Source: Hormiphora californensis (Eukaryota; Animalia; Ctenophora). Taken from it: a stretch of 64,000 bases of DNA. Under the pieces are notes generated by a model. It did not search any database and was not told the DNA's origin. It worked only from the letters and a program-made list of their open reading frames with translations. A program made the translations under genes and the position numbers. Positions 758 to 52,418 of this stretch are shown piece by piece; position 1 is the first letter of the stretch, and every line of letters starts with the position of its first letter. The stretch is taken from NCBI GenBank assembly GCA_020137815.1, contig CM035351.1, forward strand, positions 5,766,001 to 5,830,000, in the 5' to 3' direction.

Positions 758-12053
<11,296 letters not shown>

Positions 12054-12798: not shown

Positions 12799-14084
12799 TA
12801 GTTAGAAAGAGGGCAAAGAACTTCCGAAGTTTTAAACCTTCTTATAACTAGAAATTAGAAGATGGAATGGTATCGAAGGAAGATATCAGCAATATCCCCT
12901 CCCCACCCCATATTTAATTATCAGCTCTCCACAGAGCCTTCCCATTATTATCTCAGATATCACTCGATTCGATTAGGTATTTTGTGAGTAAAATCGAACT
13001 TCGAAGCCCCCCCCCCCATCAGCCATGTAATCACTGTTGGTACTTGGTGTCCAATCTGAAATCGATTGGCAGATTTCTTTCGAGCATTTTGGTAAAGTCC
13101 GTTTCAAGCGACTTGACCCGTAATTCTTGGAATTTGGCGCATTGCGCGTGTATTTACAAAGGGGAAATCCTGAATTTCCAGGAATCTCAGGTCAAGTCGT
13201 TTGAAACGCACTTTACCAGGGGCTGGAGTGTTGGCCTATGCTACAGGCCCTGTGGAAAGCCGTGGAAAACGCGCGCACTTGGGGCCTGCAGCGCATGCCA
13301 AGCTGGAGTGGTGACGGTCTAGGATTATTATCAGACAGGCCTTACAGACGCAATTGCAAAACGGCAAACCCGAATCCCCAGGGCCCAGAAGTACTTCAAA
13401 CCCCCAATAAATACTTTATACGAAGGTTGAGGCTTAAGCAAATAACGGAGTAGCCACCGTCAGCCGTCTAAGGTTAAAATCTAGGCCAAAGTAGGGCCTG
13501 GCACCAGGCACCGTGGCCAGGAAGCAGGACAGAGCGCAGGGGCCCGTTTTTGGTTTTTTGACCTGTTTCTGGGACAGGAAAAATCTGATAAATTTCAATT
13601 TTTTTATGAATTTTGTCGTTGAAGCGCTGCATTTCATGTAACACGCGAAAATTAAAATAACTTGCGCTGCACAAACTGAAAATTCGTGCGCGCACTGAAA
13701 AAAAACTTTTCAGTGCAGTTGCAGTTTTCTTTTTCTCTTTTTTGTTTTCAAATTTTGTTTTTTGAATTTTGACATTTTTTATTCCTTCACGAATCACGTC
13801 TGACATCACAATTCACATCTAAGACATCCCAATAGCTTCAAAGATGTCGCTCAAGCTACTAAGAGCAGCAAAACCAAATAGTATCACCATATTATGATGG
13901 CTGAGTTCAGGAGGCGCCAAGCGGTGTACAGCAGACAGCTTTGAGCCGCTATGGGCCCAGGCTGAACCTGCTTGAGGATGTTTCTTCCCCCACTCCCCCT
14001 GACCGAGGCTGCCCAGCACCGTCCTTGGGTCCAGCCCTGCCTAAAATGTAATAAAATAATCACAATCTTTGCTGGGTACGGATT

Positions 14085-14123
14085 CAAACTTTCATCAACT
14101 ACAACGTAAAACTATTTATTGAG
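14085..14123 (+). other. Spliced-leader-like 5' sequence of the retroposed unit
   Basis: (TT)CAAACTTTCATCAACTACAACGTAAAACTATTTATTGAG begins immediately after the TSD, is AT-rich and ends in GAG. It resembles my recollection of a ctenophore SL (TTTCAAACTTTTCAAC...TTAATTTGAG), which needs verification. Confidence 0.6.
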
Positions 14124-14170
14124 ATATGTCCTCAGGATGTTGAGACCGCCCGTAGGGGCAGGAAGAAGTT

Positions 14171-15193
14171 ATGACGGAGAAACTCAATACCTCTGATGCA
14201 GATGCCGATCCACTGAAATGTGTTGATCCCTCGGTGATGGAACTACTTCGTTATGCAGTAAGAGACGTTTTGTTAATCAGGAATGGAACCAAACCGAGTC
14301 ACCATCAGGTGGATGAAGAGCTGCGAATGTTATTCTTGGATTCCAGTCGGTCACTGCCAGTAGACTACGCTATAAGAAATTATAATGGAGATCAGTTCAT
14401 GGCCTTCACCAAGAACCTCTGCCGTCATATTCTTCTGATAGCGAGGGAAGCTGGACAATGTATGAAAAATAACGATGAAACTGTCCGTATGAAAGAACGT
14501 CGGGAACTAGAGGAGTGTAATCGGAAACTCAAGGAGGTACAAAAAGAGCTTGGCTCATTCAAGGAAGAGGTTGATAAACATCGGGTATCAAGGATTGAGT
14601 TACAAGAGAAGCTGATTGAAGCACAAAAAAGTTTGATTGAAGTACAAGGTCAGAAACTCAATTCGGTGTCGGAGTCTGTTCAGAAGCAATTGCAGGGCTA
14701 CTCCAAAGTACTAGTCCAGAACTGCTCAGCGGCTATTGCACCATCCCGCCTCCAAGCAGCATGGAAGAAAGCGTCAGTGCCCCTTCCCACAAGTACAACA
14801 GAAGAAGCAACTCCTGATCGAAAGCTGAATTTGGTTTTGTTTGGGCTACCAGAAACAACTGCAAGAACCACTGAGCATGAAGTTCGAGATATTTTTACAG
14901 AGCTGAATGAAAAACCAGTCATAACTTCCACAAAGCGAGTCGGCGAAAAGACTGATAACCGACCAAGACCAGTAATCGTTACCCTTGAAAGGAGGGAAAC
15001 CTTGTTGCAGCTTCTCAGGAAAGCAAAGCAGCTCCGGGATTCAGAGAAATTTTCCTCGGTATTTCTTTCCCCCGACCTAACACCGGAGGAACAGCGAGAA
15101 CGGAAAACTCTCGTTGATACAGTGAAAGGACTGAGGCGAGACAATCCGAATGGACGATATTGGGTTAGCAGGGGGGTAATCAAATGTGGCTGA
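14171..15193 (+). CDS. LINE (CR1/L2-type) ORF1-like protein, 340 aa: coiled coil + RRM-like + CTD
   Basis: Heptad-rich middle region, then the motifs RKLNLVLFGLPE, KRVG...RPRPVIVTL and VFLSPDLTPEEQRERKTL, typical of non-LTR retrotransposon ORF1 proteins. Confidence 0.8.
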   Translation: MTEKLNTSDADADPLKCVDPSVMELLRYAVRDVLLIRNGTKPSHHQVDEELRMLFLDSSRSLPVDYAIRNYNGDQFMAFTKNLCRHILLIAREAGQCMKNNDETVRMKERRELEECNRKLKEVQKELGSFKEEVDKHRVSRIELQEKLIEAQKSLIEVQGQKLNSVSESVQKQLQGYSKVLVQNCSAAIAPSRLQAAWKKASVPLPTSTTEEATPDRKLNLVLFGLPETTARTTEHEVRDIFTELNEKPVITSTKRVGEKTDNRPRPVIVTLERRETLLQLLRKAKQLRDSEKFSSVFLSPDLTPEEQRERKTLVDTVKGLRRDNPNGRYWVSRGVIKCG

Positions 15194-15556
15194 CTTCTAA
15201 TCAGTGACATGTGCACTGAAGAGACTTCTAATGGGACTTATTAATGGCTATCCGTTTTGCCCACAAAAAAGGGGCAGTATATGTAATGTATACATTTTAG
15301 AGTTAATAAATAATAAATAAAATGGGTACGGATTGAAGAATGCGATGGAGTTATTCATATTTCATTCGAGCCGGTTTGTGATATCAAATGGTGTCAATGA
15401 TGCTCCTATCAAGTCAGTACTCAGTGCTTGCAGTTTTCTGGTCGAAATTGAGTGAGAGGGAACCGAATGTTTGTAATTTATGTTGAAAACGAAAACTGCA
15501 CCCCGACCCCGACCAATTGAAACTCATTGGTTCTCAAAATGTGTCATCAAAACGAA

Positions 15557-17176
15557 TTATTGCAATTGACTTTCAACAACATGAACAGTTTCATTTTCGA
15601 TCTCAGACTGCTTAGAACAGCATGAGTGTAGCTCATTGTCATCACTTGGTTGGACTTGCTGGTGACAAATAAGCCTCTCGTGGCTGACACACCGCTGATA
15701 TCCCTCCCCTCCATGTTCCGTAATATCAAGTCCCACTTTCTCCGTCTCTAGGTCCACCCGTAGATATGACGTATACTGAAAATAAATGTGTGATAAAGGA
15801 GTTCTAAACTAGTCGAAATAAAGAAATTATTTGCTAGTCCTTCAAAATAGTATACACGTCTCAGACCTGCGTTTTCAAACACTGTGATTACCTTTAGAGC
15901 AGTAAAAGTACAGAGAGAGAAACAAGCGGCCCACGAGGCGACAGCAATCAGTGTCACAATATTAGCAAAGAACTGTTTTACTCCATTTCCATTACATTCG
16001 TAGAACAGCCCACAACTTCCCGTTCCGTAGGCTGAGTTAACATTTTCCGGTGCTGCAAATAATCCAGCTGCAATCGTTCCCCATGTCCCGCAGAAAAGAT
16101 GAACGGGGGATGCACTAACAACATCATCAATCTTCAGTCTATCCAGGACCAGGTCCGCTCCCACATAAGTCAAACCACCAATAACTCCGGTCACACATGA
16201 TGTAAAAGGCGTCATCACATTGGCACCCGCTGTCACACTGACCAGTCCAGCAAGAGCACCATTATTCATCCTTGTCACGTCCACAGTCCCCGATAAAAAC
16301 CATCCCAGGATTGTTGCAGTTATTGCAGCAGAGGCAGCGGAGATAGTGGTTGTAACAGCCGCCAGTCCGGCAACATCGTTCATACCATCTGATATTGTTA
16401 GTGAACTGCCACAGTTAAAACCATACCATCCAAACCATAGCAGTAGGGTTCCAACGGTTTGGTTTGTTATCGATTGCTGGGGGAGAATCACAAGTGAGCC
16501 ACTCTGAAAGCGGTTGTACCGTGGGCCAAGAAGAATTGCCGCTATCAAAGCCGTCATTCCACCAATCACATGCACAACAGTACACCCTGCAAAATCGATC
16601 ACTCCAACTCCAAATAGCCGTGAATCTGCATCCAGGGAAGGAGAGGCCCATCCCTCGGCAGACCAAACCCAATGCACCGCAATGGGGTAGATAAATGTGA
16701 TCAGTCCTATTGAGCAGATAAAGTAAGCTCCCATCTTGCATCTCTCTGCTACTGCACCTGATACAATATTAGCGGCTGTTGCAGCGAAGGCAAATTGAAA
16801 AGTGAAGTACGCGTAACTGTATCCTTTTGTATCAGCATCTACAGCTGAAAGTGCGAAATTGTTTCCGCCTATGAAAGAGTTTCCTTCGCCATACGCAAAT
16901 CCAAATCCGATCAACCAGAAAGATATCCCTGCAATACAATGCGATGGATAAGTTTTTCACAAGAATATTTCGTGTGTTCTTCAGCGATACACTACCAACT
17001 TCGACCAATGCAAAACCAGCTTGCATAAAAAAGACCAAAGCTGCACAAAGAAGAAGCCACATGGTATCCATTGAGCTTGTCACTGACGCTGTTGCATTGG
17101 CTCTTATTTCACTAACCAAAGTCTCTAGACTGTCGTAGTGAGCATCCTCGCCATTCGAAAATACAATCCCAGCCAT
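15557..17176 (-). CDS. AMT1: Ammonium transporter, AMT1 type (one intron about 15777-15891; apparent frameshift about 16940)
   Basis: Motifs LVFFMQAGFALVEVGSV..KNTRNIL, FQFAFAATAANIVSGAVAER, DFAGCTVVH, WFGWYGFN, NNGALAGLV, IDDVVSASPVH and, after the intron, LRVDLETEKVGLDITEHG. Confidence 0.93.
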
Positions 17177-17373
17177 TTCCGATTACAATTAATAAGTTGT
17201 TTTTTTTTCAATTATTCATCGTTTATCAAGCAGCAGTTAGTCAAGGTCAGTATGAAATGAGCTGCTGATTTCCCAGAAATCAAAAGCTTGCTCCTTCATA
17301 AAATCATTTACTTTCGTATCCGAATTTTAATCACGACTCTTTTATAGCAAAGGCTTGGTTTCACATTTCAGCA

Positions 17374-18314
17374 ATGGTAAGTAGTTTTTAAACTCCATTT
17401 AAATATACATTTAGATACTAACCCGCATAGCTATATCATATCTTTACCCCCAAATGATGTCTTATCCAGGACGTTTACATTATGATGAGAAGGAAGAAGT
17501 CCACCATCCTTACCGATGCCAAAGAGTTCTCCACCGTTGGTGACCTCAAGAAGATCATTGAAGGTATGTTTCAATTTGATTGTTGGCAGCTAATTCTAAT
17601 TTATACACCTCACTGTATGTTACTAACATCCCCTGTAGGTCTGATAAACGTTGGTATTGACGACCAAAGGCTGCTGTTTGATGGAATAATCCTAGAAAAT
17701 GCAAAATCTCTGTCAGATTCTGGTATCACAGTAAAGAATGCCCAAGCAATGTCACCCGCTCAGCTCACTCTCGCTGTGAGAGACCCCTCAAGTGAGTTGA
17801 CCCAGTGGTGTGGCCCAATTTGTCACACTGATTTTGCTGCATCGCTGTAGGACGCGAAACGAAACTTGTTGATTGGCTGACGCGGGGTGTTGGGCGCGTC
17901 GTACGCGCGTTCTCTGTTGTCAAGCAGTCACTACCGGTCACAATCTGTCACATCAATCAACAGAGTTACAGTCAGACACATGATCCATTCAGTCCAAAAG
18001 ATTAACATGAATTTGGCCTAAATTACAAGCCTCCTGGCGGTCTAAAATTCTAAGAAAATGTGCAAAAGAAAAACAAAAAGCTTCCCATGCCGGGAATCGA
18101 ACCCGGGTCTTGTGGGTGAAAGCCACAGATGCTAGCCCCTACACCACATGGGAGACATGACTTATGCAATTCTAAGTACTTTATATCTGTGCTATCTTGT
18201 GTTTCAACTCTCCATTATTTTGCAGCGGGTGAGTTCGAAGAGGAAAGCGTGGAGCCATTCTCTGTGCCTCCTGAGCTTCCCGAGGCACTCAAACAAACAG
18301 ATCCAGCCTGCTGA
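17374..18314 (+). CDS. ELOB: Elongin B (4 exons)
   Basis: M|DVYIMMRRKKSTILTDAKEFSTVGDLKKIIEG|LINVGIDDQRLL...AQAMSPAQLTLA...|GEFEEESVEPFSVPPELPEALK matches the Elongin B ubiquitin-like fold and its C-terminal PFSxPPELP motif. Confidence 0.93.
18082..18153 (-). tRNA. tRNA-Glu (TTC), antisense in ELOB intron 3
   Basis: The reverse complement is TCCCATGTGGTGTAGGGGCTAGCATCTGTGGCTTTCACCCACAAGACCCGGGTTCGATTCCCGGCATGGGAA. It has a paired acceptor stem, anticodon loop CTTTCAC, a GTTCGATTC B-box, and is followed by a T-run Pol III terminator. Confidence 0.95.
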
Positions 18315-18552
18315 AACGAATCAATTTGTTTTTTGTACAAAAACTGTTTGTAGATGTCAGTTTATTTGAGAAATCACCAATATATCTGACTTTGAGATAT
18401 GTCCCAAAAGTAAATCATATGGTTTTTGGTTGTGCAACATCAGTGTACCGCTACGTAAAATGTTTTTATTTAATGTACAATGTGATCTCACCCAATTACT
18501 TCTCCCTATCTCTAGCAATGAAGGAATAGCAACCCCTCTTGTATATCAAGGA

Positions 18553-20800
18553 ATGTCTGAGGCACCCACTGAGGGTTCCCTCCAGGGATCATTGGCAATG
18601 GTGAGGTCCCATGAAAATGATCAATTTCAAGACAAAGTGCTCACTGTTCTTCCTCTGGATAGACTACGAGAAAATGCTATGGCAAAAGGGTCATCTGATG
18701 GTCTAACATTCCACGAACACCTTGCTAGAGAGGTGAGTAGCAAGATAAATCTGTTAGAACTGTTTGATCCTGTCTCACCAAATGTAAAGGAGGGATAGAT
18801 TCTAACTTAGAACATAACCAATAATAACAAATCGAACCTGTTAAATTATCGAAATTTAAGTTGGGAGTGAGTCAATTTATTCTGTATCTCTCTCCAGGTC
18901 ATGCGATGGTTCAAGCACTCCTTTTTCAAGTGGGTCGACTGTAAGCGATGTGACGTGTGTGGGGGAGAGGGTAGGGCAGGAGAGCCTCTACAGCCCACCG
19001 TTCAGGAGCGGTTATTTGGTGCTTCAAGAGTTGAATCTCACCATTGTACATCATGTGGTATGTACTACACACATACACGATGTGTCCACATAATGTAGAG
19101 GTTGGTTACGAAGTCACCCCTTTTATTCCATGAGTAATAATAACAGAGGGGTAATTTCATTACCAAATGTAGAGGTACATCTTAATTCTTATTCATATCT
19201 GAAGAGATGAGTTTTACAACCCCTGCTCAGTTCATCAACAACCCACCTAACCTCCATTTACAGGCCGAGTACAGAGATTCCCACGGTACAACGACCCTGG
19301 GAAGCTGCTGGAGACGAGGGAGGGACGATGTGGGGAGTGGGCAAACTGTTTTACAGGAATCTGCCGAACTCTAGGATACGATACTAGGTTGGTATAACAC
19401 TCTCACTTAGAGACCGCCGTTGCCCCTCGGCGTTCAAGAAACAAAACAAGTGATGTATCAATAATCTCTGGGCAACAAATTACAACTAATCACCTCCCCA
19501 TATCTCCCAGATTCATCAGTGACAACGCAGACCACGTCTGGACGGAAGTTTACTCGCCCCATCTAGGACGCTGGGTCCACATGGACTCCTGTGAGAATGC
19601 CTGGGACAGACCTCTTGTGTACGAGCAGGGTTGGAAGAAAAGAATAACTTGGGTTGTGGGGAGTTCCATTCATGAAACTGTCGATGTGACATACAGGTAA
19701 ACACTATTGATTAAAGCCTCCTTATATTACCCCACTCGTCATCTAATTTCCGATTTAAGCAGGGTTGAATATCAAATTAGAGAAAGTACTAAAATATATA
19801 CCCATTTCCAGGTACACAATAGAGCCGGTAGAGGTGAGATCCCGAAGGGGTGCCAGGGAGCCGGGGGTACAACAAATGATAACTCGCTTCAACAACTCCC
19901 GTTACTCACACCTCTCAGAGAACACTAGAGCGGCACTGAACAAAAGGCTTGCTAAGGAGCTCACCCAGATGCTTCTCAAGGCAAATGAGGGAGCAGGACA
20001 GCAACAACAATACGGAGGGAGAGAGAGTGGATCTTTATCCTGGAGGAGGGAGAGAGGGGAGACTGAAGATCCAACTCTAGGCCAGATAATAACTGTGCCA
20101 GAGGATACCTCCCAGTATACAGTCCGGTACAGCCCTGCCTCGGATGTATACACGGATGGGACGGGTGCTGTGTTAGCACGGGGGTTTAACTCTCTGGCGT
20201 ATAGTAACGAGGGTGTAGTGAGGAAGACTGAGTACGATTGGAATATGGTGTATCTAGCAAGGGAGAAAAACGAATCCATCTCAACTATTGGTGAGTATTA
20301 TTGTACCCTGGATCCCTCTGTATGGCGGCGCCCATACCCCAATTTGATTCTCAGATGGGGTCGGCGGCGCCAGACAGGGATCCCTGCAGGGGTCACTGAT
20401 CCTATTACCAGCTCAGTCTTATTTCCAGTTATTTGTCTCTTATTGACCATTTTCATTCTATTCTCTCACTTGAACCAACTGACCACTATAATATTTTCAG
20501 AGTGGAGGGTAAAGTGTGCACGACCTATTGTTTCTGCATCCCTCTCAATGCTCCACACCACTTTTAATATGAGTGTTGTTGAGTGGTGCTGTCTCCCTAC
20601 CTCTACCTCCGAGCTGACCTACCATGAGGAAGTTCTCAGATATCGATTTGACATTGCTACAGGAGTGCACTGAGTTCCGACTAGTTGCTAGGAATGAAAA
20701 GCGTGCTGTACCGGCTGATAACGCTTGGCAACACACACAGCTGTTTAGGACTAAACTAGATGGAAATGAGAGCCCCTTTGAAATTAATCTTGAATTCTAG
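18553..20800 (+). CDS. NGLY1: Peptide:N-glycanase (transglutaminase-like core + PAW domain, no PUB domain seen)
   Basis: Motifs [11 protein letters not shown], two CxxC zinc pairs, [56 protein letters not shown] and C-terminal AWQHTQLFR. The last motif lies in a shifted frame after an apparent indel near 20667. Confidence 0.95.
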
Positions 20801-21457: not shown

Positions 21458-24400
21458 TCAATCCTCTTCCTCCTCTTCCTTTCCCTCTCTGATAGCCATC
21501 ACAAACTGAGCGGGTTCAACTCGAACAGCGTAGTGACCGAGCAAGGCCAGATGGGGGAAATAGGCCGCCACCACCTCCAGAAAATAGTTTGGAATATTGT
21601 GGCACCCACCAAGATAGAGATATCGCAGCTTGGGACAATTTAGAACTGAAAAAGAATTTCTTTAATTAGAATAGTAGGGCTTGTTAAACTTTGGGACAAT
21701 CAAAAACTGAACTACATGTCAGGTGTAGTTGGAGCGATGTAGTAACACATGTTTGAAATTATGAAATCCTAATTACCTGGTAAAAGGGTAACGAAGGAAT
21801 GGACCCGTTTAGTCCTTTCAGTTTCAGTGAGACAAGATAGGGGCACCCAGATAGTACATGCTGCAATACCAACATCAGTTAGGGAATGACTGTAAGCTCT
21901 GGGATAGCTCTAGGTATTGGAGTTGAGGGCTCAATTCTGACAAACCTACCAGTCCTTGGTCATCCAGCTGGAGAGATAGTTGGAAATTATTACTTTGTCG
22001 CAAAGAGGGAGAAGGGAGAGCAGAGACAAGGAGATGTATAACAATTAACATCATAAACCAGTGTTATACCACTACAGTGTTAACCTACCCCTAAACAGTC
22101 AGTTAAGATGTAGTCGTGTGATTCGTTTTCAGAGAACTCATGAGGATGGTGTAGACACTCAGCTCGTTAGATCATAGCACCGTGATAACCTATGAGGGTG
22201 GGAAGCTTTATAATGAGTTTTTAGGTCCCAGCTGCAGTAGCCAGTAGGGGTTTACGAAATATGGATAAAGGTACTAACTTCCCCTTTACAGAAAAACTCG
22301 ACTCCCCAATCTAACCCTCCTGACTTACTTTAGGGTGGTAAGGCTGTGGAGGTTTTGTAGCGATTTAAGTCCGTGACATGTAAACTCGTCACAATATTGC
22401 AGCTCCAAGTAATCGAGCGTTTTTAGTCCCGATAGAACTCGCAAACTGTCGTCTCCCAAGTTTCCACCATCTGAAAAAAACAAGGAAATGTTGTTGTATC
22501 TACAAGAGGTGGGAACTATAAAATTTGTTAACAAAGGATAGTATTGGAATTGTAGTCCAAAATAACTTACCAAGACAAAGAAATGCCAGAGTCGATGAGC
22601 AATATTGAACTAGGTTCTGTATAGTTGGTGTCCTAAGATTTAACACACCTCCCGCCTCCAAACCCCGCAATTTACAAGTTCTTATAATGCGCTCAATACC
22701 TCTGGAAAGAGATTGGATGAGTTGTTTGTATCCCAATATGTTATACATAGATTAGATAACATAACATTGATCTACGGAACCCTCACAGAGCGGTGTGAGC
22801 CACACAACTTTAACACTTGGTGAGCCACACAACTATAACACGGTGTGAGCCACACAACTATAACACGGTGTGAGCCACACAACTATAACACGGTGTGAGC
22901 CACACAACTATAACACGGTGTGAGCCACACAACTATAACACAGTGTGAGTCACACAACTATAACACGGTGTGAGCCACACAACTATAACACAGTGTGAGC
23001 CACACAACTATAACAAGGTGTGAGCCACACAACTATAACACGGTGTGAGCCACACAACTATAACAAGGTGTGAGCCACACAACTATAACAAGGTGTGAGC
23101 CACACAACTACCGTGTGCGGCAAAAAAAAATGCCCCCCCCTAGACCACCATAGTTGCCGATGTGGTGGAGAGCTGTTACTTGGCAGGGTTGCTCCACTAT
23201 GTCTATCTTGATCCTGACAGAAAAATCAGAGCTCTAGCTCAAAATTCATTTTCATGAACGGAATGAACATTGTCATTCATTCCAGGAAAAAATATTTTCC
23301 GGTTCAAAATTTAACTAATTATGTTTGGCTATCGATTTGCTTTCCAATGTGACCAAGATCAGCTAAATTGGACAACCACAAGAGACACAGTGTCATGTTT
23401 CTTAAAGTTAGTCAGGTCATGTGATCTTCACTGAATCGTTGATCGTGTTCAGTATTACGAATTGGTCTAAGTGGTAGAGAATCACGTATCACATCTGCTA
23501 ATGAGGGATGACGATGCTGATTGGTCATCAGATCTGTAGCTCTTTGATAAATGTCCTCTTTCCTCGAATCACATCACCCTGTATTGGTACACATACCCAA
23601 TTAGCGGCCATGATACGAGATTCCTTTGCCCATTGGCCCGATTAGCAATCCCGGAAACTCAACGATTCGGTGAAGATCACATGACCTGACTAACTTAAAG
23701 CAACATGACACTGTGTCTCTTGTGGTTGTACAATTTAGCTGATCTTGGTCACATTGGAAAGCAAATCGATAGCCAAACATAATTGGTTAAATTTCGGACC
23801 GGAAAATATTTTTTCCTGGAATGAATGACAATGTTCATTCCGTTCATGAAAATGAATTTTGAGCTAGAGCTCTGATTTTTCTGTCAGGATCAAGATAGAC
23901 ATAGTGGAGCAACCCTGCCAAGTAACAGCTCTCCACCACATCGGCAACTATGGTGGTCTAGGGGGGGGGGGCATTTTTTTTGCCGCACACGGTATAACAA
24001 GGTGTGAGCCACACAACTATAACAAGGTGTGAGCCACACAACTATAACACGGTGTGAGCCCCACAACTATAACACGGTGTGAGCCCCACAACTATAACAC
24101 GGTGTGAGCCACACAACTATAACACTTGGTGATGCCATCCCCTCTTCGTGTGGCTGGTAGTGGAGGGGTGACTGCGTCACCAACTATAACACAGTTCTCT
24201 AGACCTGTCAGTGATATCATCGCATTGTAGAATCCCCAAACTCTCCAGATTCTGGCAGTTAGCCAAGAGGTGCAGGGTGTCATCCCCTACCCAGGGGTTA
24301 TCAGAGAGGTCTAGGTGGGACAGATTGGGGCAACACGCCACGATCATCTCCTGCAAGTTGGGGTCCAGGTCCAAGTGGTATAGGTGGAGGTGGGTCAGGT

Positions 24401-36276: not shown

Positions 36277-39200
36277 GTACAGGGTTCACGAGCTAAAGTA
36301 TTGCTTTTGTGGGATTAAAGAACCTCAACCGTGCTACGGAGCGTGATATGGTCGGGTGGAGATATAGAGTCATGAAGTGGGACAAATGGGAAGCAGGAAG
36401 TAGGAATGTAGAAAATGAATTTGAAGATGAACAGACAGGAACAGAGTGATAGAGTGAGAACTATTATAACAGTGTGATAAACAGAGTGGGCTAGGGACAT
36501 GGACAGAGAGATAATTTCTTTTGGAATGTGAATTCCTGAATCCTGCCTACTTTCTATTCACGTCTACTAAGATCATGACCGGGTGGGTACCGAAGTGCGG
36601 TATTTTATTGTCTGTCACCAGTGTGATAATGTGATCCTTGAATTCGGTGTTTCTTTTCTCTACAAATGAATTCTAATGAAAGACTAATGACCAACTCATG
36701 GGACGTCGTCTCATGAGACCTACTTCTACTAGTGTCGGCACTGCGGAGACATATCCAGTGTGGCCGAATGATCGGACAGACTACTTTTGTCCATTGCCAG
36801 CAGTAGATTCAGGATCATTTAGATTGATTTGATCTTTGAAATGTGATAGACATTGTAGTGAGGGGAAGTACTAAAATAGAAACAGAGAAATAGGAAGGTA
36901 TCTCTTCTCATGGGGAGGCTACTAAATGAGGTTATCTTTGTAAGGTTATTATTCAGCTTTCCGTCCTGTAGCTTCTTATACTAGGGCTATTATAGGAAGT
37001 GAGTAGTCAACCGATTCGGAGAGAGCGAGAGAGAGAGAGTAAGGCAAAAGTGAGGAGAGAAAGGGAGAGAGAGAGCGAGAGAAGAAAGGGAGAGAGAACA
37101 GGGAGAGAGCTGAGTAAGCTACACAGTAGTCAACTAAACCCTGAGGGGGCTTGCAATTAGGAGTAGAACTCTCCCACAGGGCTTTCCAAACAGAGGAGGG
37201 GGAGGTGAGAGTAGAAAGAGTGAGAGTTAGCTGAATAAACATTGGTGAGCCGTCATTCAAACCAGGATACAACCCTTCTAAACTCTCTCTCTCTCTCCAT
37301 CTATCTTTTCCCTCTCTCTCCATCCTCTCCTCCACTCCCCCCTGGCCCTCTCACTCTCTCATTCGTCATTCATTTGTCCGGTGAGGTAGACGTTTTAATC
37401 TCTCACTATATCCTCCTTCCTCATACCTCTAGATCTTCTTTGGTTCATTCCATCAATCTCTCATTCTCTCTATCTCTATGTCTGTCTCTCCTCTCCCTCC
37501 CTTTCTCTCTCCCCCCTCTCTCTCTCTCCCCCTCTCTCTCTCCATCTCTATCTTCCTCATTCCAATGGTATATTTCTCTATCGCCCCTCTCTCTCTAACT
37601 CTGTATCATATGCTTCTCTCAGTTCTCACGATTACTATCTTTCTATTCGCTGTCTTGATGACTTTGTGTCATTCCGCCCTAGTCTGGCGGGAGGAGGGGG
37701 CCAAAGCTACGGAGAATGAGAGAGAGATAGAAAGTGAGAGAACTATATTTATATCGCGACCATTAATCGAGTTTAAGATGCCACTTGGACGCGGACGGTG
37801 ATCTGCTGGGTGGGCGAAGAGGCGCCAGGTTGCCTGGGCTTCAATTCTCAGTGTGTGTTCCACCGCGGCGCGACCATGGATTGATGAACTTAGCAAGCAT
37901 CTGAAGTTGTTTATTCAGCCGCGGCAGCGGACCACGTCTTTCTTCTCCTTCAATTTATTGTTTAGATCGTGCATGAGTTGTAAAGAAACGCGTTATCGTC
38001 ATTCACGGAGAGAGCGATAGACAGGGAGGGAGGGGGAATCTGAGAGAGAAAGATAGAATTTGAGAGAGAAACAGAGAGGGAGAGAGAGATACTAGACAGA
38101 GGGGAAGATAGAGAGAGATAGAGAGATATGGTGAGTGATAGTAGATGGGACCACGGAGATTGCGTGCTATAAATTCACCCAGCCCTGTTCACCGGTTCAC
38201 GGGAAATCATTCACGCCTACCCCCGCTCAAACCGAATGCGGGGGACAAGAGTTAGAGAACTCTGGTGGCTATCTCAACTCTTAATTCGCCCTAAAACAAA
38301 AAAAGATGGCATGTCACTATTTCTACCCGGTTTGTAATAACTGTTCCCACGGATCAAAGCCCGTGAATGCCAAGTAAGGATTTCGCAATTAAGAACCTGG
38401 AGAAGACCCAGTGTGATGGTGACCAATATTAAATTGAGCTTGTAACACTTGTAGGGTGGGATATTGCGAAATGAGGGGCTGCAGCTGTATGTTGTTCTCT
38501 CACAATCTTACAATTCATCCCTACCAATCGGATGATTACTCTCAAGAGCTAAGAGCTACCCAATTTTTATCGCCTAGCTGAGTTTCTCAATCGGCTAATG
38601 AATCACGAATCTTTAGATTTACGGGGGTCATAACACAAATTATTATGGATTTAGACAGCAAGAGAGAGGGAGAGGGAGAGGGGACGTGAGAATAAAGAAG
38701 CATTTCATGATGCGTAGAGAAAGTTTGAGTAATATTTTGAATTTGGCATAATAATAGCTGTGATTGAAATTTGAATGATATTCCCATTTCATTGTGAGCT
38801 CCAGTCATCTTTAGACAGTGACACCTGACAGGAAAACCTAAATCAAAGCTATAAGCACCTTGTATCTCACAGCTAACTGTAACGGTTGTCAGTAGATAAG
38901 ATACATATTCTCATGTTGTTGAATAAAAGATAAGTGGACCTCTCACAAACTCTTATCACGATAAAATGCAAGGCGTGGTAAGCAGGGATAAACCAAACAC
39001 ATTGAATAGAGGGATACAACAAAGATAACGAATAGAAGGGGAGTGGCTTGGGGGTGTCGGCCGGAATTCCTAAATAGGATCATGAGTTAAAATAAAATAC
39101 GAGTCTGAGAGTGTGAGAACCAATATATTGGTTGTATACAAGATAACAAGAGAGAGAAAACAGGGAGACAGAGAAAATAGGGAGGGAAAGAGAATGCTGT

Positions 39201-40149
39201 TGCAATGTTGCGAGAATATGATTGGTCGAACAACTGCAGCACTACCGTTCAACTGATAAGCAACAAGTTGTGAGATGTAACGCCTCCTCCACCAGCCCAA
39301 TCTGCTGCAGATCTCTCTCTCTCTCTCTCTCTGCATTGTTATCAGAGAGTCCCGATAACGCCTCTTCCCCAGGCCTCCCTCTGCAGCTACCAAACTCTGC
39401 GCTTATCTTTCTCTTTCTCTCACTCTCTGTCACACCGCGCGATGGTTCTTTGTTTCACGAACTCTCTTTCTTTGTTTGAGATTCTCGGTCGCACATCAAG
39501 TTTATATTTGAAAGTTTGGGACATGCTATTATTATTTTTGTATGTAAGATGAACCTTACATTGAACCCTAATCCCTACTTTCTCTTCCCATACGTAGCAA
39601 TTATCCATGAATCTGACGAATATCTCTCTGCTACTAACTGGAATGGATATCACCCTGCTTTCTCTCTCTCTCTCTCTCTTGCTGATAAAACCAAACTGAT
39701 TCTGATTACTGTTAGAGCCGACATTTTGGGATCAATACAGAACACATGCTACTATTAGATAGAGGAGGAGCATTGCACCAGACACGCTAACTTGGAAGCT
39801 GGGACCGCTATTCTTTGAGGTAGGAAAGAATTGCCACCTAGATCTATCTCTCACACAGCTCACAGCCGATATATGGTGGTATAGCTGCTGCAACACGCTC
39901 ATGACGCAATCTCCACCCACTAATTCTCACAGCACCTAAATTCCCTAGAACACCCTTCTATAAACACTTTTTGGCCAGTACTATCACAATCAATAATCGC
40001 ATTTCGAAATTCTAGTGAAAATCCGGTTCTTTTAGCTTGCAATCTGGGCCGTGAACAAACACCAGCTTCCCCTGTTCTCTTTCTCTGCATCTCTCCCTCT
40101 CTGTTCTAAGCTAGCTCGCTCTGTAGAGATTGGGGCACATGTGACTGGG

Positions 40150-40340
40150 CAACACTAGCCAATAGCGGCGCTGCAATCGACGTCGCGTGACATCTCTCCA
40201 GCCAATAGCAGAGCACTTTGTGAGGAGAGAGGGAGTCACGCAGTGCGCTGAGCCGGCCTCTCGAGTAGACATTGCGCAGCTCGCACGTGAAGGTCATTCC
40301 CCTCCTTCGCAGAGCTGAGGTGCCCTCTGATTGGACGTTG
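40150..40340 (+). promoter_or_regulatory. Candidate promoter of the zinc-finger gene
   Basis: CpG-rich patch with three CCAAT/ATTGG boxes, GACGTC and CACGTG motifs, about 200-350 bp upstream of the proposed first exon. Confidence 0.4.
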
Positions 40341-40515
40341 GTCCGCTGACCCGTTATCGAGTAGTTAAGACTCCCTCAGATTTATGACCACTGCGACAGT
40401 CCTAGTATCACACGTGACATCTTTCATGATTTTTGGGAGTATCTCCCCATCTGACTTTAGTTCTTACTTGGACACTTTCCGATTGCTATAACCCAACTTG
40501 TCTTAAGTTTACACT

Positions 40516-43500
40516 ATGCTTGTTCAAAACGTCTTCAACTCGACTGCCGTGCCCATTTCCCAGAACACTAAGAAAGGTATGTTGACAGAGGTTCACCGCA
40601 CATGTTTTTTCTAAGTCACAATAACACAATTTTATATAAACCACCTGCAATATACCCATGTTATTGCACCCACCTACTGCAGCTATCACTGTTATAGGTC
40701 CTATAGGTTCATAATATATCTGAACTTTACTTATATTATTTTACCAAACTTTTATAAAATTTATAAACCAACACACAACACTACCACACACACATGGTAG
40801 ACCCACAGCACAACCCAAGCTATGTTATCAAGGTAGATCGCATCAAGTTATAATATTTTAACACATCCCTCCAACTTCAATAAAATATAGCACACTGTTA
40901 TAGCCCCACACCATTTCCCCAGTGCCACTATCACCACACAAATATTACCATAGCACCGTACAGGATCCTATAGCATTATAGGGGAGGGGTCTATTAGATC
41001 GGGTTCATGGGACTTCATACTGATATAGCACTCATCTAACATTGATAATATTTCCACTGCAATATTCAACCCTATTCTAGCTGCATTGGTAGGTTTAGTC
41101 ATGGCCGGCTAGGGAATACTATCTTGTGGCACCGGAGAAATATCCTCCAAAAATTTATCCACCACTTCATGAAGTGTAAAATAGCCGGTGAAGCTTCACC
41201 CGTTATTTTACAAGCTCAATGGATTTTTAGGTGCATCTCCCCGGTTCACTGGGCCAATATCACTATCAGTAAAAATTCCTTGGCCGATCTATCACTGCAT
41301 GGCCCATTGTATCACAGCTCTGCATCTGGTCCCACATGGAACAGTCCAATTTCTGCATTTCTTCAACAATTTATTTGCACTACACCATCCAGCTGTGAAA
41401 CAATGCATGTATCTCATTCCCTTTTTTCACATCTCAGCTCATGCAATTTTGTTCATGTGTGTCCATGAGGGTTGGCGGGCTGAAGTGGAACCCTCCGGGC
41501 TTTCCAATGGGTATTCTCCCGCCATTGCGCACACAGCGCAACCTATCCCTCTTTGTTTCTCTTCGCGATCCTTTATTACTAAGCCGTCTTCAATCCTTAG
41601 CCCCTCCAGAAAACATGATTTTAGGTAAAATAATCATCTCAGCTCTATCGCACTATTTTTCTATGGCTCACAGTATTTTTCTCTGCACTATCACAAACAT
41701 CATCACATTATGAAATACAGAATATTTAAAAAAATTTCAATAACTTCAACCACACAATAAACAACACATTTATTTTATCGTGACTAGGGCTGCACAGATT
41801 TTTCCAAATATTATCATATCAGAAAAAATAGGCCATTTGGCCAGTTCTCTCATTATATTTATCACTGATAAAATATTTCCTGGTCGCTAACACAATTTTT
41901 CCTTCCCTCAGAAAAGCGTTTCCTGTGCGATGTGTGCAACAAACAATTCCAGCACAAGGGAAACCTCAACTCCCATATGAGATCGCATACCGGAGAACGG
42001 CCATACAGCTGTGATGTGTGCGATAAGCGGTTCTCTACCTCTGGCATCCTCAAGACCCATATGAGAACACACACAGGCGAGAAACCTTATCTCTGCGATA
42101 CCTGTGGCAAGCGGTTCTCTCACATCGGCATTCTCAAGGTAATTTAGCTTGCAATATTGCAATATTTTTGTCTTGTACCATCAGCCTTTTTGCCCTCCTG
42201 ATCGGACTTGTGTCCCCGAATATTTGATTGTGATAAAAATTAGCACACCACCTATTTGCCTTGCTCCTAAAATCTTCGCATAATTTTTGTTAACAGCTTG
42301 GAAATATTCTGAAGCCTCTTCCTGTGAATTCCTATAATAATTTTCTGATACAAGAAATATTTTTTTCGGTGCCTACTGCCTAGAAATATTTGTTGTTTCA
42401 GTAAAAATAAAAATATCTCGGGGCGGCATAACCATTGGAAAATCGCACATCGCACAACTTATCATAATCGCAGGATGGCCGAAAAAATATTTCTTGTATC
42501 AGAAAATTATTAGGAAGCGCAGAAAAAAAGTTCAGCGATTTTCAAGCTGTTTTAAAAATTATTCTGCTTTATCTTGCCTCCTGAACTGATTATATTTCCT
42601 GTTTCGATCTCAGCACGACATTTGAACTACAATGCCACCTGCAGAAACTTGATGATACCTCATGGGCTTGCCCTACCATTCATCTATAATATTGCAATAT
42701 TTCTCCCTGGCCCTAACAAAGTGCAATATTACCACCTAATGCCTGATTTATTTGTGCTCAACTGGTGTAGATATTTTTTCTCTGTCTCGCCATCCCATTT
42801 TTTTTGTTGCTTGATCGCACTTGAGTGATCGCACGGCTACATTTTTATCTGCACCCCTGACTATAGCCCATGCTATATTTTTGCACTGGCCATTTGTTGA
42901 CCCCCTTGCTCAACAACTGGCCACAGCTTTAGTTTTATCATATCACGACCTTTCTTATGAACTTATTGCCTACCTTTTGAACAGTTCTCTGACCCATATC
43001 TTTCCCTCTCAGAACCACATGCTGACCCACAGTGGCGAGCGACCCCACCGTTGTCCCATTCCTGATTGTGGAAAGGACTACAGTCGTGCTGCCAACCTGA
43101 AAATCCACATGCGATCTCATACCGGTGAGTTCTCGTTCTTTGTTTTATTCGATCTGATAGTTTTGCTGGTAGCAAGCTCAGCTCTGTATACCACGAGCAA
43201 GCTGGTGTGAGCGCGGCGCGACCTGGTGAAGACTCATTCTCCGCCATTGCTGAACAGATGGGCTTTGCGAAATTTTTAGGCGGGCACCCTCGGGGCGAGT
43301 TGCATTGAAAGAGGGGGTGATTCTTTCTATGTCTCTCTGTCATTAGACGCCCTCTTAATAACTGCTCAGGGGCTTGACTGCTCATTGCAGCTGTGAATAG
43401 TAATTCTATTTACCGCACACAATGAGCCACAGTTGAAGCAGGAAACTGCAAAAAACGTGCCCAAACTCAATTTAACCTGAGCTCTTAGTACAGAAAACTG

Positions 43501-44854
43501 ACCCATACCCTTCCCCAGGTGAACGACCCTTCCGATGCGAGTACCCGAAATGTGAGTGGAGTTTTGTCTCCAGTACCGACCTGAAGGTTCACCTGAAGTC
43601 GCACACCGGGGAGAAGCCCTTTACCTGCAATGTCAGTGGGTGTGGACAACAGTTTACCGATCACGGCAACCTGAAGAGCCACATCATGTCCCATAACAGC
43701 AACAACAAGAATGTTACTTCCCGAACCCCTGAGCCAGCTCCCATTGCCGTGAGGAGAACAGTTGCCGCAGTCGATCACCTCCCCAGCTACAAACTTATCG
43801 CTCTTGATGGTAAGTTTCAGATTGTTGTTTGAGATATGGTGTAGCGCGAGCGCTCTTTGTCTTGCTAGAGGGGTCCATGATTGAAGATTTATCTCTCGCG
43901 CTCCGGCGCGATCTCAGGCGCAACTATTTTTTCTTTGTTCTTTGTGTGTTGACCCAATCATGTTTCTAACCTATACCCCTTCTTTCAGGTGACTTCCAAA
44001 AGACCTTCGTTGAGCAGATGAAGCCAGTTCAGCAATTGTACGCCTGTTCTGAGTGCTCCAAAGGATTTGATGCTCTGGCCAAGCTGAAGCTCCACATCAA
44101 GGAACACGACACCATCACCGATACCCGGCCGTACAAATGTGGCGATTGTGCGAAGAAGTTCTCTCAGCCGCGGAACATCCACCGACATATGGTTCTGAGC
44201 CACGGACAACCCGAAACAACCGGACCCTTCACCCTCGCCCTCATGTCTCCCGAGAGGACGCCCTTTGCTGACAAAAACGAGCAGACCACAGTTCAGAGGG
44301 GGAGAAAGAGGCCCCTGGATGAGCTCCACAAGTCGGCCTTTACACCCGTCGCCAAGTCGCCCACCACCTCACCAAATGGGAAGACCAGCCCCGGACTAAA
44401 TCAGCTGTTTATCACAGGCGTGAAGAGCCTCCGAGAGGACCCAACAACTGTTCTGCAACTGCAACAGGAGAAAAACACGCTGGTGATTAAAAAGGAGAAA
44501 GTCTCCCCTGCCCGTGTTCACCCCTACAGCAGGCCAGGACCTAGGAAAGTTGCCCCTGCTACCCGACCTGTTCTTCCCAAGATCGCCCCTAAACCAGCAC
44601 CAAAGGTGGAGAAAACCGTCACACCTCCTCCTCCTCCTGCAGCCCCTACCCCTGCTCCCCTGCGCCTTCACACACCCGAGAACGTGCACAATGTGACATT
44701 TGTGGATGAGCTGAGATATGCTGCTGTTGCTGCTTCCTTTAACATGATGGTACAGGGTGCCATGGCCTACCGAACCTACCAGACCCTCCGGTGCTTCTAC
44801 AAGTGCCTGACCACCGCTAAACAGTCCGTGGAACTGGGTGCCATGCCTTGGTGA
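40516..44854 (+). CDS. C2H2 zinc-finger transcription factor, 8 fingers, Pro-rich C-terminus
   Basis: Exons at 41911-42138, 43013-43124, 43519-43809 and about 43989-44854 carry TGE(K/R)P linkers. The proposed first exon 40516-40576 ([20 protein letters not shown]) has the matching phase-1 donor but is less certain. Confidence 0.88.
42280..42562. mobile_element. Degenerate inverted-repeat (MITE-like) element in zinc-finger intron
   Basis: TAATTTTCTGATACAAGAAATATTTTTT pairs with AAAAAATATTTCTTGTATCAGAAAATTA, with weaker pairing further out. Confidence 0.6.
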
Positions 44855-46131
44855 AGGAAGGATGGAAGTTAGCACAGCGTGCAGCACTGTTGATCTGTGG
44901 TGAGGATGGAAAGAAAGAGAGAGGTAACTCGATCAGGGAGCTCGTGATGTGACACCCGGTCCAGCCAGTTGAGACACTCTCGACTGGAAACTGAGGACCA
45001 ACCCCAAGGATTTAACTGCGAAGAGCTACAGCTAAGAGGACGAGTAACTTACGAATGAAGAACGAATGAAATGAAAGAAAAAAGCCACAAACTGTAACTG
45101 TATCATATTGCAATTTATACAGAAGCTTTTGGAGAGCAAGTTTAGTTATTTATTTATTTTTTACCATTTTTATGTCTGAGATAATATCTAAAGGCGTTAC
45201 CCTAAAACAAAGATACTGCTTTTTACTTTTCTTAACTCGGGGCTGGAGAGAATGTGGTATCTTCTCAGTTCTCTAAATTATCAGAGGTGGACAGTCCATC
45301 TCTAGCATCTCTCTTTGTCGATTGCTAATATAAGCTGGTGTCGAACGTGGCTGTATCGTAGCATAGGCAGGTCGATCACCGGGCCCACTCTAAGCAATCC
45401 GGTCGCCGGTCGGTATCTCTAGCCTCCTGGTACAAGTCTGAGCTGACTTTTTTACTGCCCTCGCAGCGAGTAGCGACGCCGACAGCTGCATGCATTAAGC
45501 GGCCTCTGCTCTGTGACTCAGTGTGAGGGTGAGGGGCAGCGTAATTGTCAAGAGGTTGTGTTTGTTCGTCAGTGTTTTTAAAGAAGATGACGCCGGCCGT
45601 GAAGGTTTCTTGAAGGTTCTACCGAGATCGAGACAAAGAACCCGTACCTGAACCTGAGCTGCTCAGGTGCAACCTTCCATGGTTGACAGGTGATCCAGGT
45701 GATGCGAGATGGTGCGCGCGCAGGTTATACCGTGTGGTTGCGCGGTCCATTCTACCTTGAATGCACCGCGCCCTACAGACATAACACTTGGAGACTGCTA
45801 GCGGGGATTGGAACGTAAAAACATCATTTGCATTTTGCATCCCACCTCCATCTATGTTGCAAGATTTTTTGATTTTTAAGAAAGCAAGAGAAATACCACC
45901 TCCCCCTCCAATTATACTGAAAATGTTCAAATTGTCGACCTCTACGGAATCCAAAATAAGGACCCTACGTCAAATCAATGAGGCTTGTTTGAAATAAAAA
46001 GAAGGCAAAATGGTGAACATTAACAATGTTAAATAATATTTCAATCTATATTTTCGTTCATCTCAACAGTTTAACAACAGTTCAGATACGCAATATTACA
46101 GCCAACAACCGCAACCAGCTGATAAGTATAA

Positions 46132-46302
46132 CAGTCGGACCCCGATTTAGTGGCATCCTCGGGGGAAAGGGTTTTGTCCACAAAATCGGGGTGTCCACTA
46201 AATCAGGGTCAAATAATGGTAATTTCCTATATCGGGGGGAAAAATCCTGCCACTAAATTGGGGTGCCACTAAATCAGGGGCCACTAAATCGGGGTCCGAC
46301 TG
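46132..46302. mobile_element. Tc1/mariner-type MITE (CAGTCGGACCCCGATTTA TIR)
   Basis: Termini CAGTCGGACCCCGATTTAGTGG / CCACTAAATCGGGGTCCGACTG|TA. Same family as 54688-54828. Confidence 0.85.
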
Positions 46303-46306
46303 TATA

Positions 46307-48714
46307 TAGTAGAGTCGATAACTACATCGACCTCTCCCAATTGTTCCAGTTTTTGTCACATCTGTTTGGAGCCTCGACACGACCTCTAAACAGGTGTTAC
46401 TTTTTCACAAACTGTTTTCATCTTGGTGTAATCAGCAGTTGAAATGTTGTTGATCATAACAAAAACCTGACTAAATTTTTTCAACTTGGGGTAAAACCAT
46501 GGGTGTCAAAAGTTAGCTCTAGGTCCCCTGAGTAACCATACGGAGACTCCAAGAGATATTTCAAGCCGTTATCCTGTAATCATTAATCCCGGTAGAGCAC
46601 ATATTTGAGTATGGACGTACGTGCAATTGCCTACAACCTCAACTTTAATGTATAACGTTAATGTGCGTCTCTCTCTTTTCTCCCCCTTGAGAAAGAGTTA
46701 TCTCGCGCGGCGCAACCGCACGTGCGGTTTTTCCAGAGAGAGTGAGAGACATACAATAACATGTAAACAGCCTGCCAGCGCTCACGTACGTCCGCATTGT
46801 ATTTTTTTCTCCACCGGGATTAATGATTACGGGAGAACGGCTTGAAATATCTCTTAGAGTCTCCGGATGGTTACTCAGGGGACCTAGAGCTAACTTTTGA
46901 CACCCATGGTTTTACCCCAAGTTGAAAAAATTTAGTCAGGTTTTTGTTATGATCAGCAACATTTCAACTGCTGATTACACCAAGATAATAATAATAATAA
47001 TAATAATAATATTCCGCGCTTATATACCGCCCATACCCGACGGAAATATGTCAAAATATTGGCGATGCTCCGTCTGGTCATCAGAGCGGTATATCCTCGA
47101 GTAAATATATGACACACACAAACACTCTGGTTGAAAAAGACAATATATAGAAGCCGATATAACTGGACTTATAAAACTGGTGGAAAAAACTGGTCCCATA
47201 AACCTGTAGATATAAATTTAAAACACACTATACTCACACCTGTTAGGAAAAAAGGATACTAGGTAGTGATTTAATAGCATGGCTAGAGAGAAGATGACAC
47301 CGATTGCCCGCAGGCTCCACAACTACAACAAACATTACAACTCAGCCGCGGGTTCCCCATCACCCACTCCAAATGCACCAACGAAGAGATGTGTCTTCAG
47401 ACGGGCCTTGAATGTATCCACATTGGGGATTGATCTGAGCTCAAGAGGTAACTCATTCCAAATAGTAGGCAGGAACACTGATAGTCTCCTACGTCTCAAC
47501 TTAGAGTTGGCGTTGATACTTGTCATCTTTGGGTGTTTTAATCTGTACGGATCAGTAACACTAGTCATCCTTGTTGTCCTGGAGAGACCCCAGCTGTCAT
47601 CAAGTGGCACCATTTCCTGGAGGTAACGGGGAGCTGTTCCATAGACTATTTTGTAGGCGATCAGACAGGCTTTGAAGTCCAGTCTGTAGGAGATGGGCAA
47701 GATATGGCACTGCCTGAAGTATTCCAAATAGCTTTCCTGGTGTCCATGGATGTTGTATATAAAGCGCACACAGGCGTTGAGAAGTTTCTGGAGCCCACTG
47801 AGAACTCGAACCGGAAGTCCACAGTACAGTATGTTACTGTAATCAATTCTTGATATGATCAATTGTTTGACCAACATTATCTTTGTTGGAATATCAAAAC
47901 ACCTGTGCAACTGCCAGAGATTCCGTAATGCCAATCCACACTGCTTTCTCACATTGTTGACCTGTCGTTCAAGATTGAGATTGTGATCCAGGAGGATTCC
48001 TAGGGTTTTCCCGGTTGTTCCACTACATTCACTAGGGGAGATTTCTGTTCCTCCAAAGTTAATGACTGGATCGAAAGTGACCTTGCCCAAGGAACTGCGC
48101 TTTCCAAGAAGGATGAATTCTGTCTTAGCCTCGTTGCACTTCAACCACTGTCCCACCATCCACCGCTTCACCTTCGCCAGACATTCCTCAATATCCACCT
48201 TTGCCTCCGACCAGCCAGTAGAATCTGTAGGAACCAGACTCACATAGAGCTGGGAGTCGTCCGCATATAACTTTATCCTGAGTCCATATGGTTCCACAAT
48301 GTCCTGTACAGCCTCAATGTATAGTAGAAACAAAATAGGACCCAGGAGGGACCCTTGGGGCACTCCACAGAGTAAGGCCAGAGTATCCGAGAGACACTCA
48401 CCAACCGAGACTCTACAAGATCTGGAACTCAGGTAGCTCTTAAACCATTGAAGAGGATCACCATCCACTCCAAAACGTTTCTGCAGCACCTCTAACAACT
48501 TCTCGTGATCCACTGTGTCAAACGCAGCGCTCATGTCCAAACATATGAGAGCCACAACATTTCCTTTATCCATCTCCCCTAACACATCATCGAACATACA
48601 TGAAAACAGTTTGTGAAAAAGTAACACCTGTTTAGAGGTCGTGTCGAGGCTCCAAACAGATGTGACAAAAACTGGAACAATTGGGAGAGGTCGATGTAGT
48701 TATCGACTCTACTA
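46307..48714. mobile_element. Academ-like foldback element (about 285-bp TIRs, ATA TSD) interrupted by a LINE
   Basis: TAGTAGAGTCGATAAC...GTTATCGACTCTACTA with ATA on both flanks. The right arm is split at CACCAAGAT|...|ATGAAAACAG. Confidence 0.9.
46987..48599 (-). mobile_element. 5'-truncated LINE (CR1/L2-group) with RT domain and (ATT)n tail
   Basis: The ORF ending at 47335 contains LDMSAAFDTVDH, GVPQGSLLGPILF, YADD, KTEF and RIDYSN. A 3' UTR and (ATT)n tail follow at 46987-47010. Confidence 0.95.
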
Positions 48715-48846
48715 ATAACTATACCGGCATTGTTATTATTTTCAATAGTTGTCCCTACAGCTAGGATCAGGAAAAACAGGATAAAAACAAATAAATATTA
48801 CACACTGGGGGACCCCCTCTCAAATTCCCCAATCTCACTGAACATC

Positions 48847-51431: not shown

Positions 51432-52418
51432 ATCGCTAAAATTAGAGAATTGTGTTAGCGGTGTTATAGTATAAAGTAGAATTAAAAGTAGATCAAGTAT
51501 ACTGACTTGATCTGAACACAAGAAATTCATGGAAGTCGAGATGAACAAACAAAGAGTTGAGTGCTCGAAGTATGATGTTTTATTCAAAGAAACTTGGAGC
51601 ACTCAACACACTTACATCACTCAGTCGCGAGATATCTAAAATAGAATGAAACTCTGACCAAGATTTCGAGATAGAGAACGTAAACTGCAAGCAAAAAAGG
51701 TATAAAATAAATACTAAAACAGAAGTATCAACGTCAGAGATGCAAAGTCTTCCCCAGCTATTTTAAATCCGTAAGGTCTCTTTTTATGCGTATGGGCGTG
51801 GTTATAAAGCACGTAATGCACACAAGCTCACGCATAGGGGGACCGGGGAGGTGCAAATTCCAGATGGTAGAAGTTGTTACTCAACTAGTTACAACAAGGG
51901 GGGACACGCAAGGGGGGGGGGAGCGGCCGGCGGGGGCACAGATCGCGTAGTGAGATCAACATGACACTGAAGTTCGTAGTTTCGTACAATTATGAAACCA
52001 AACTAAACAGCTGGGAAACAATTTGCAAGAGGCTAATTTCATCACTGATACATCCCCCAGAACAGACAGACAGACAGACAGATAATGGTAAAATGTTCTG
52101 AACACAGCGTGGCGTGACGTACCCAGAGCATTTAGTTGTATTTATATAGTACACAACATCTGAGGCCCCGTTGTCGGCTTGTTGTTTCTCTTTCAGTGCT
52201 GTGCCGGTCATGAATCATCTTTAGTTCTCGTATGTACAACTTGTGAAGGAGGGGCGTGCCCATTCGAGAAACAGGGGCGCCGGCACGGGTATAGGCAGGT
52301 ATGGTGTGCGCTTTAGAGAGACAAGGCAAACCACAAGATTGATGCTGGGGAGTCTCCCGACCGGCAACCCCTTTCGACTTTTGAGCGATGTTGTGTTCTT
52401 ATAACCGCCAACCAGTGG

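Follow-up and report, generated by a model that had tools for sequence, protein, structure and literature searches.

A polymorphic ORF1-only non-autonomous LINE with a spliced-leader-type head in the ctenophore Hormiphora californensis

The element at 14073-15334 of the window, which is the whole 64-kb stretch of Hormiphora californensis DNA that was analyzed, was classed as an ORF1-only non-autonomous LINE of the HAL1, HeT-A or Ag-Sponge kind that carries a spliced-leader head. It is probably a polymorphic copy of a multi-subfamily ORF1-only retroposon whose RNA was given the host spliced leader before a partner LINE likely supplied the reverse transcriptase for its insertion into the genome. 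An ORF1p-type protein, the lack of an ORF2, a target-site duplication with a tail and mobility, and a multicopy family under selection were all found. In the literature searched, ORF1-only LINEs, leaders on transposon RNAs and leader-bearing retrogenes are known, and a spliced-leader head on an ORF1-only LINE was not found. The window copy has the following parts.

14073..14084, + strand: left target-site duplication, 12 bp; the final 2 nt are common to the leader, and empty alleles have a single copy
14083..14123, + strand: spliced-leader-type head, 41 nt, with an AG solely at its 3' end; identical in the relative L001
14124..14170, + strand: 47-nt 5' UTR with no relation to the L001 one (14 of 47 positions match ungapped)
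14171..15193, + strand: ORF1, 340 aa, a putative type II (L1-like) ORF1p by its predicted fold and the ORF1 types in the passage of PMC4120745
15194..15302, + strand: 3' UTR with a weak hairpin at 15258-15275 (z -1.97; 10 of 200 shuffles equally good)
15303..15322, + strand: TAA/TAAA simple-repeat tail, 20 nt; (TAA)n in other copies
15323..15334, + strand: right target-site duplication, an exact match to 14073-14084

The positions of the repeats, the leader, the intact 340-aa ORF and the A-rich tail agree with those given in an earlier note on this DNA. The 12-bp direct repeat is exact, extends neither way and occurs just twice in the whole window. Such a 12-mer pair has a chance of about 1e-3 of arising within 100 x 200 positions at the ends of the element. 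Since a few more isolated 12-mer pairs, spaced 1-1.5 kb apart, are present in the window, the repeat by itself is suggestive only. Contigs from four public runs (X4, X5, X8 and X24) were mapped onto window positions 13950-15450. In X4 and X5, which are DNA runs of two samples with the same organism label from separate studies, one contig each skips the element, keeps a single repeat and continues into the right flank. Both filled junctions were found in X4 (13990-14109 and 15293-15399). The empty-site alleles in the two runs therefore indicate that the 12-bp repeat is a true target-site duplication, and 14073-15334 is a recent polymorphic insertion. The target-site duplication that the earlier note had read was thus confirmed by empty and filled alleles for the window copy, the one copy with a known duplication; none was visible on the 1.0-1.3 kb contigs of its relatives L001-L003. 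One correction concerns the leader start. The left repeat ends in TT, and these two bases are also leader bases, a 2-nt overlap at the 5' junction that was assigned because L001 shares 41 nt from 14083.

Summed contig depth was 100-420 in the flanks, about 5,000-90,000 over the ORF and 140,000-240,000 in the leader bins, so that the ORF stands at about 10-200 times and the leader at several hundred times the flanks in relative contig depth, which is not copy number. These values were taken only to mean that the element is multicopy and the leader far more so. A multicopy family had been proposed earlier, and both the contig depth and the relatives at 37-98% identity bear this out. Within 14124-14200, depth was about 38,000-52,000 at 14188 as against 7,000-12,000 at 14216, in X4 and X5 alike; this step may come from a derivative family that is leader-headed and shorter, or from conservation of the 5' end among subfamilies. 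The marine RNA run X8 gave just three short contigs on the ORF, which were not taken as proof of expression.

The ORF1 protein is predicted to have N-terminal helices, a long coiled coil (about 73-188), an RRM-like domain (about 219-290) and a small C-terminal domain. An AlphaFold2 model was built on 14 sequences (pLDDT 64, pTM 0.26) and compared with the PDB using Foldseek. The first ten matches were all human L1 ORF1p, the best with an E value of 7e-5 and eight with E values up to 0.001. By its predicted fold, then, the 340-aa protein is a LINE ORF1p, and the identity claimed for it in the earlier note held up once a structure prediction had been run. Searches by sequence were less informative: Pfam on the ORF and 14 aligned members gave no named family, coiled-coil noise alone, and a PDB sequence search with the ORF returned weak keratin-type matches and nothing else. 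When the C-terminal 127 aa were modelled from the single sequence, the folds matched were generic ferredoxin-like ones (best Z 7.6), with no ORF1p among the matches listed, and the result was set aside as uninformative. In the passage of PMC4120745, type II ORF1 occurs in L1, CR1, L2 and R1 elements and is common in CR1 and L2 LINEs, so that several parent clades would fit this ORF1.

Protein searches returned 13 and then 27 relatives at 37-98% identity. In the three nearest ESM Atlas clusters (54, 58 and 277 members), ctenophore was the most frequent label among the few taxon-labelled members, and the ORF1 family is probably a multi-subfamily group of ctenophores. No relatives were found in viral contigs or in prokaryote genomes. 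A metagenome scan yielded three confirmed relatives (L001-L003) out of 67 candidates, all on short contigs of 1.0-1.3 kb. The comparison of dN/dS among copies that had been proposed earlier gave values of about 0.15: the ratio was 0.14-0.16 in all three unsaturated pairs, which are those among L001-L003, and the three pairs of the window copy with a relative were saturated at synonymous sites. Furthermore, 20 of the 35 in-ORF variants listed are synonymous, as against 23% of sites expected (p 2e-5). Judged from these comparisons, the ORF1 family is under purifying selection.

The leader resembles the published ctenophore leader and ends in TGAG, as judged by eye for the window copy and L002. 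The Hormiphora leader printed in the passage of PMC8527503 is identical to the window leader, again by eye, at the first 10 and the last 5 nt. The ctenophore spliced leader with which the earlier note had compared it is the Hormiphora type, and the window carries a related second type. Both boundaries of the leader are sharp in the two DNA runs. Mixed sequence precedes 14083 in at least 10 and at least 15 contigs and follows 14123 in at least 16 and at least 20 contigs (agreement 0.51 and 0.45), and in X4 and X5 a wide variety of sequences is joined to the leader at its 3' boundary. The end of a Hormiphora-type leader stands before 14119 on the body of this element in X5 (a single contig, 11 letters). 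Run X24, which is RNA by guess and may not be RNA, gave five contigs, all leader-only, differing by 2-3 bases and with a depth of up to 440.

The relatives carry the same kind of 5' end. L001 has an identical 41-nt leader at 45% protein identity to the window ORF, with saturated synonymous sites and unrelated UTRs. The first 26 nt of L002 are, by eye, the end of the published Hormiphora leader, and L003 starts with GAG at the same junction as L001, so that three leader bases are visible. In all, the 5' ends seen as DNA are of leader type in 4 of 4 cases, L003 by its 3 nt. A leader that stays identical despite saturated divergence, and that comes in two types at a single junction, fits fresh addition by trans-splicing and not inheritance. 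The earlier proposal that the 5' end was acquired by trans-splicing gains support from this exchange of leader types at the same junction, and the sequence comparisons support a leader that behaves as an exchangeable module of host spliced-leader type. No second leader of either type was found elsewhere in the 64-kb window, and leader matches were absent from viral contigs. A 10-mer leader match at 49798-49807 was rejected, since the sequence diverges at once.

The 3' ends are of a different kind from that expected earlier. The window tail is 70% A in units of TAA and TAAA, and in two contigs from other copies (TAA)n continues after 15309; it is thus a simple-repeat tail of LINE type and not plain poly(A), and the polyadenylated mRNA that the earlier note had envisaged was not borne out. 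The second repeat lies 129 nt past the stop codon in the window copy. L001 ends in (TTTGTA)n at 221 nt past the stop (1032-1252) and L003 in (ATTGAT)n at 206 nt (981-1186). The contig of L002 stops at the stop codon and is uninformative; the other three units end 129-221 nt past the stop without an ORF2. On the + strand, no frame is open for more than 130 codons in the 3 kb beyond the element, and therefore no ORF2 follows the window copy. The first of two earlier options, a non-autonomous family that gains its 5' end by trans-splicing, is favoured by the short simple-repeat-tailed ends of L001 and L003.

No pairwise 3' UTR similarity among the window copy, L001 and L003 was significant. L001 and L003 have proteins that are 84% identical yet unrelated 3' UTRs and tail repeats, which suggests tail swapping between partners. 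The near-tail hairpin is alike in the window copy and L001, is weak (z about -1.9) and is absent in L003. A candidate partner was considered within the window:

46985-48699, - strand: 5'-truncated LINE with an intact RT frame (profile match to RVT_1, E 3e-18) and an (ATT)n tail

This RT-coding LINE at 47.0-48.7 kb was set aside as an unlikely partner; its 3' end (46981-47335), the one LINE 3' end used in the comparison, had no significant match to any of the three UTRs, and no partner LINE was found. Simple-repeat tails point away from L1, given the tail habits of the clades.

A cycle can be proposed from these features. The host spliced leader is likely trans-spliced onto the RNA of the element at a fixed site, and insertion into the genome follows. 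The ORF2p of a partner LINE would then act in trans and start target-primed reverse transcription at the simple-repeat tail, and, by analogy with LINE biology, the ORF1p would be retained for packaging the RNA that encodes it. Any upstream promoter is lost from an RNA that has been trans-spliced, and the copies therefore need a way back. Genomic copies would be re-expressed through passing host transcription and not from a promoter of their own; re-splicing at the terminal AG of the old leader would let a fresh capped leader replace all upstream sequence. Each cycle would in this way restore unit-length RNA, with no need of an internal promoter and with no remnants of earlier leaders. The leader contains one AG and this is terminal, so that re-splicing would leave no relic, as seen. 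Re-splicing at the AG of a relic leader is described for dinoflagellate cDNA recycling in the passage of PMC3229502. However, re-splicing at the leader AG is made less likely by its GAG context, as the host acceptors in the window are CAG or TAG in 8 of 8 cases (by eye). Re-expression from passing transcription with re-splicing at the old AG is the least certain step, and we lean slightly to the side of doubt on it. The wider picture of a promoter-less protein-coding family, in which the previous leader makes each copy a trans-splice acceptor and passing host transcripts are cut there, is offered tentatively.

The main alternative considered was that source copies have their own promoter and an ordinary outron, and that the leader-headed copies are promoterless by-products of efficient trans-splicing. 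The poor acceptor quality of GAG beside the YAG sites of the host would be explained, both leader types are accounted for equally well, and trans-splicing of transposons appears common, the leader being present on about 30% of Hydra transposon long reads in the passage of PMC12220107. Nevertheless, every 5' end seen as DNA is leader-type, and no non-leader upstream end at 14124 was present among the loose ends listed from contigs, on which upstream ends and a downstream ORF2 were judged. Such source copies are therefore considered unlikely. The element could also be the processed ORF1 half-message of an autonomous two-ORF LINE that is cut and retrocopied separately. CR1 and L2 LINEs often have an ORF1 of type II, and RT-coding LINEs are present in the genome, but simple-repeat tails of their own are found in 3 of 3 complete 3' ends. 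None of the contigs of 66 cluster members is longer than 2,548 nt, a weak point as contigs of this sort tend to be short, and the one protein of greater length is a PSF3 fusion, not an RT fusion. A cut half-message is accordingly thought improbable. In the gene model P0072, the C-terminal half of this ORF1 is fused to PSF3 domains; it is probably a family copy beside or inside a PSF3 gene.

An internal promoter in the leader itself, inherited with the element like the head of a SINE, would follow the rule that SINEs have small-RNA heads (passage of PMC5786205). The same body with two leader types, and saturated relatives with an identical leader, require exchange, which makes an inherited promoter highly improbable. 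A leader exon is reported to act as a promoter in a nematode, and this was counted in its favor. Retrocopies of a domesticated host gene, similar to L1TD1, would have an intact ORF under purifying selection as observed here, and leader-bearing retrogenes are common in dinoflagellates. The many subfamilies at 37-98% identity, the high relative depth, the simple-repeat tails and the swapped 3' UTRs all argue for a mobile family instead, and a domesticated gene is scarcely credible as the source. Addition of the leader to the RNA of an ORF1-only retroposon is thus the preferred reading.

Bao and Jurka reportedly described ORF1-only non-autonomous LINEs in 2010, and Slamovits and Keeling are said to have described recycled cDNAs of dinoflagellates in 2008. 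HAL1 (L1 clade), HeT-A (Jockey) and Ag-Sponge (CR1) are known ORF1-only non-autonomous LINEs in the passages of PMC5786205 and PMC5753468. They resemble the window family in encoding ORF1p alone, in the duplication and tail and in a presumed dependence on a foreign reverse transcriptase. They differ in that the 5' end of the window family is a host spliced leader of two exchangeable types, and that its 3' UTR and tail vary between subfamilies only 16% apart in protein; HAL1 proper is L1-derived with a poly(A) tail, and the simple-repeat tails here point away from L1. The dinoflagellate DinoSL retrogenes (passage of PMC3229502) share the reinsertion of leader-bearing cDNA and, as proposed here, re-splicing at the old leader AG, but they are host genes in which truncated relic leaders pile up. 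The window family has a transposon protein in an animal, and no relic since the only AG is terminal.

SINEs whose heads derive from small RNAs (7SL, tRNA, 5S, U1/U2 and 28S; passage of PMC5786205) also combine a host small-RNA head with a LINE-type tail. The window family, in contrast, is protein-coding, with a head apparently added after transcription, and the word "spliced" is absent from the text of that source on SINE heads. In Hydra (passage of PMC12220107), transposon RNAs likewise use host trans-splicing, but only RNA is concerned, and no leader-headed genomic families are reported in the passage. Genomic leader copies number 718 in Hormiphora and 491 in Mnemiopsis in the passage of PMC8527503, hundreds in ctenophore DNA, with no link to retroposons made there. 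No leader-headed ORF1-only family was found in the openly available full-text literature searched, and the Hormiphora supplements may list leader variants or loci of relevance to this result.

Elements like the window copy may account for part of the ctenophore genomic leader copies. To our knowledge, all non-LTR elements have to restore their 5' end and promoter in each cycle; the known solutions are internal promoters, small-RNA heads and ribozymes. If the proposal is true, borrowed host trans-splicing would be another way for a transposon to define its 5' end, and some of the hundreds of leader sequences in ctenophore genomes would be the heads of such elements. Genomic leader matches in ctenophores should accordingly be treated with caution, as not all would be SL RNA genes. 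Re-splicing can be tested in this family by comparing the leader type on the RNA with that at the source locus, and the family would provide animal evidence for a dinoflagellate-style recycling of leader-bearing cDNA.

Other features of the window are as follows.

about 10280-10920: long inverted repeat (MITE-like), by eye, in the region of a clathrin heavy chain gene
15748-17176, - strand: intronless ammonium transporter gene (Pfam E 1.5e-66)
17372-19700, + strand: elongin-B-like gene at 17372 and a following gene at 18516, about 200 nt past the stop of the first; names by eye, and Pfam on the first gives the ubiquitin family only
18082-18153, - strand: tRNA gene (Rfam) within the final intron of the elongin-B-like gene
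22791-23110 and 23993-24125: one 25-bp minisatellite, present as two arrays

The ammonium transporter gene is split over two frames near 16950, by a frameshift or an assembly error. Rfam over 13500-19000 gave nothing besides the one tRNA. At both the elongin-B-like gene and the next gene, a YAG acceptor lies one base upstream of the start codon, which suggests that these are trans-splice sites and that the two genes form an operon-like pair. The 13 nt at 18392-18404, in the 3' region of the first of these genes, match the leader/UTR junction at 14119-14131 exactly (by eye), probably by chance.
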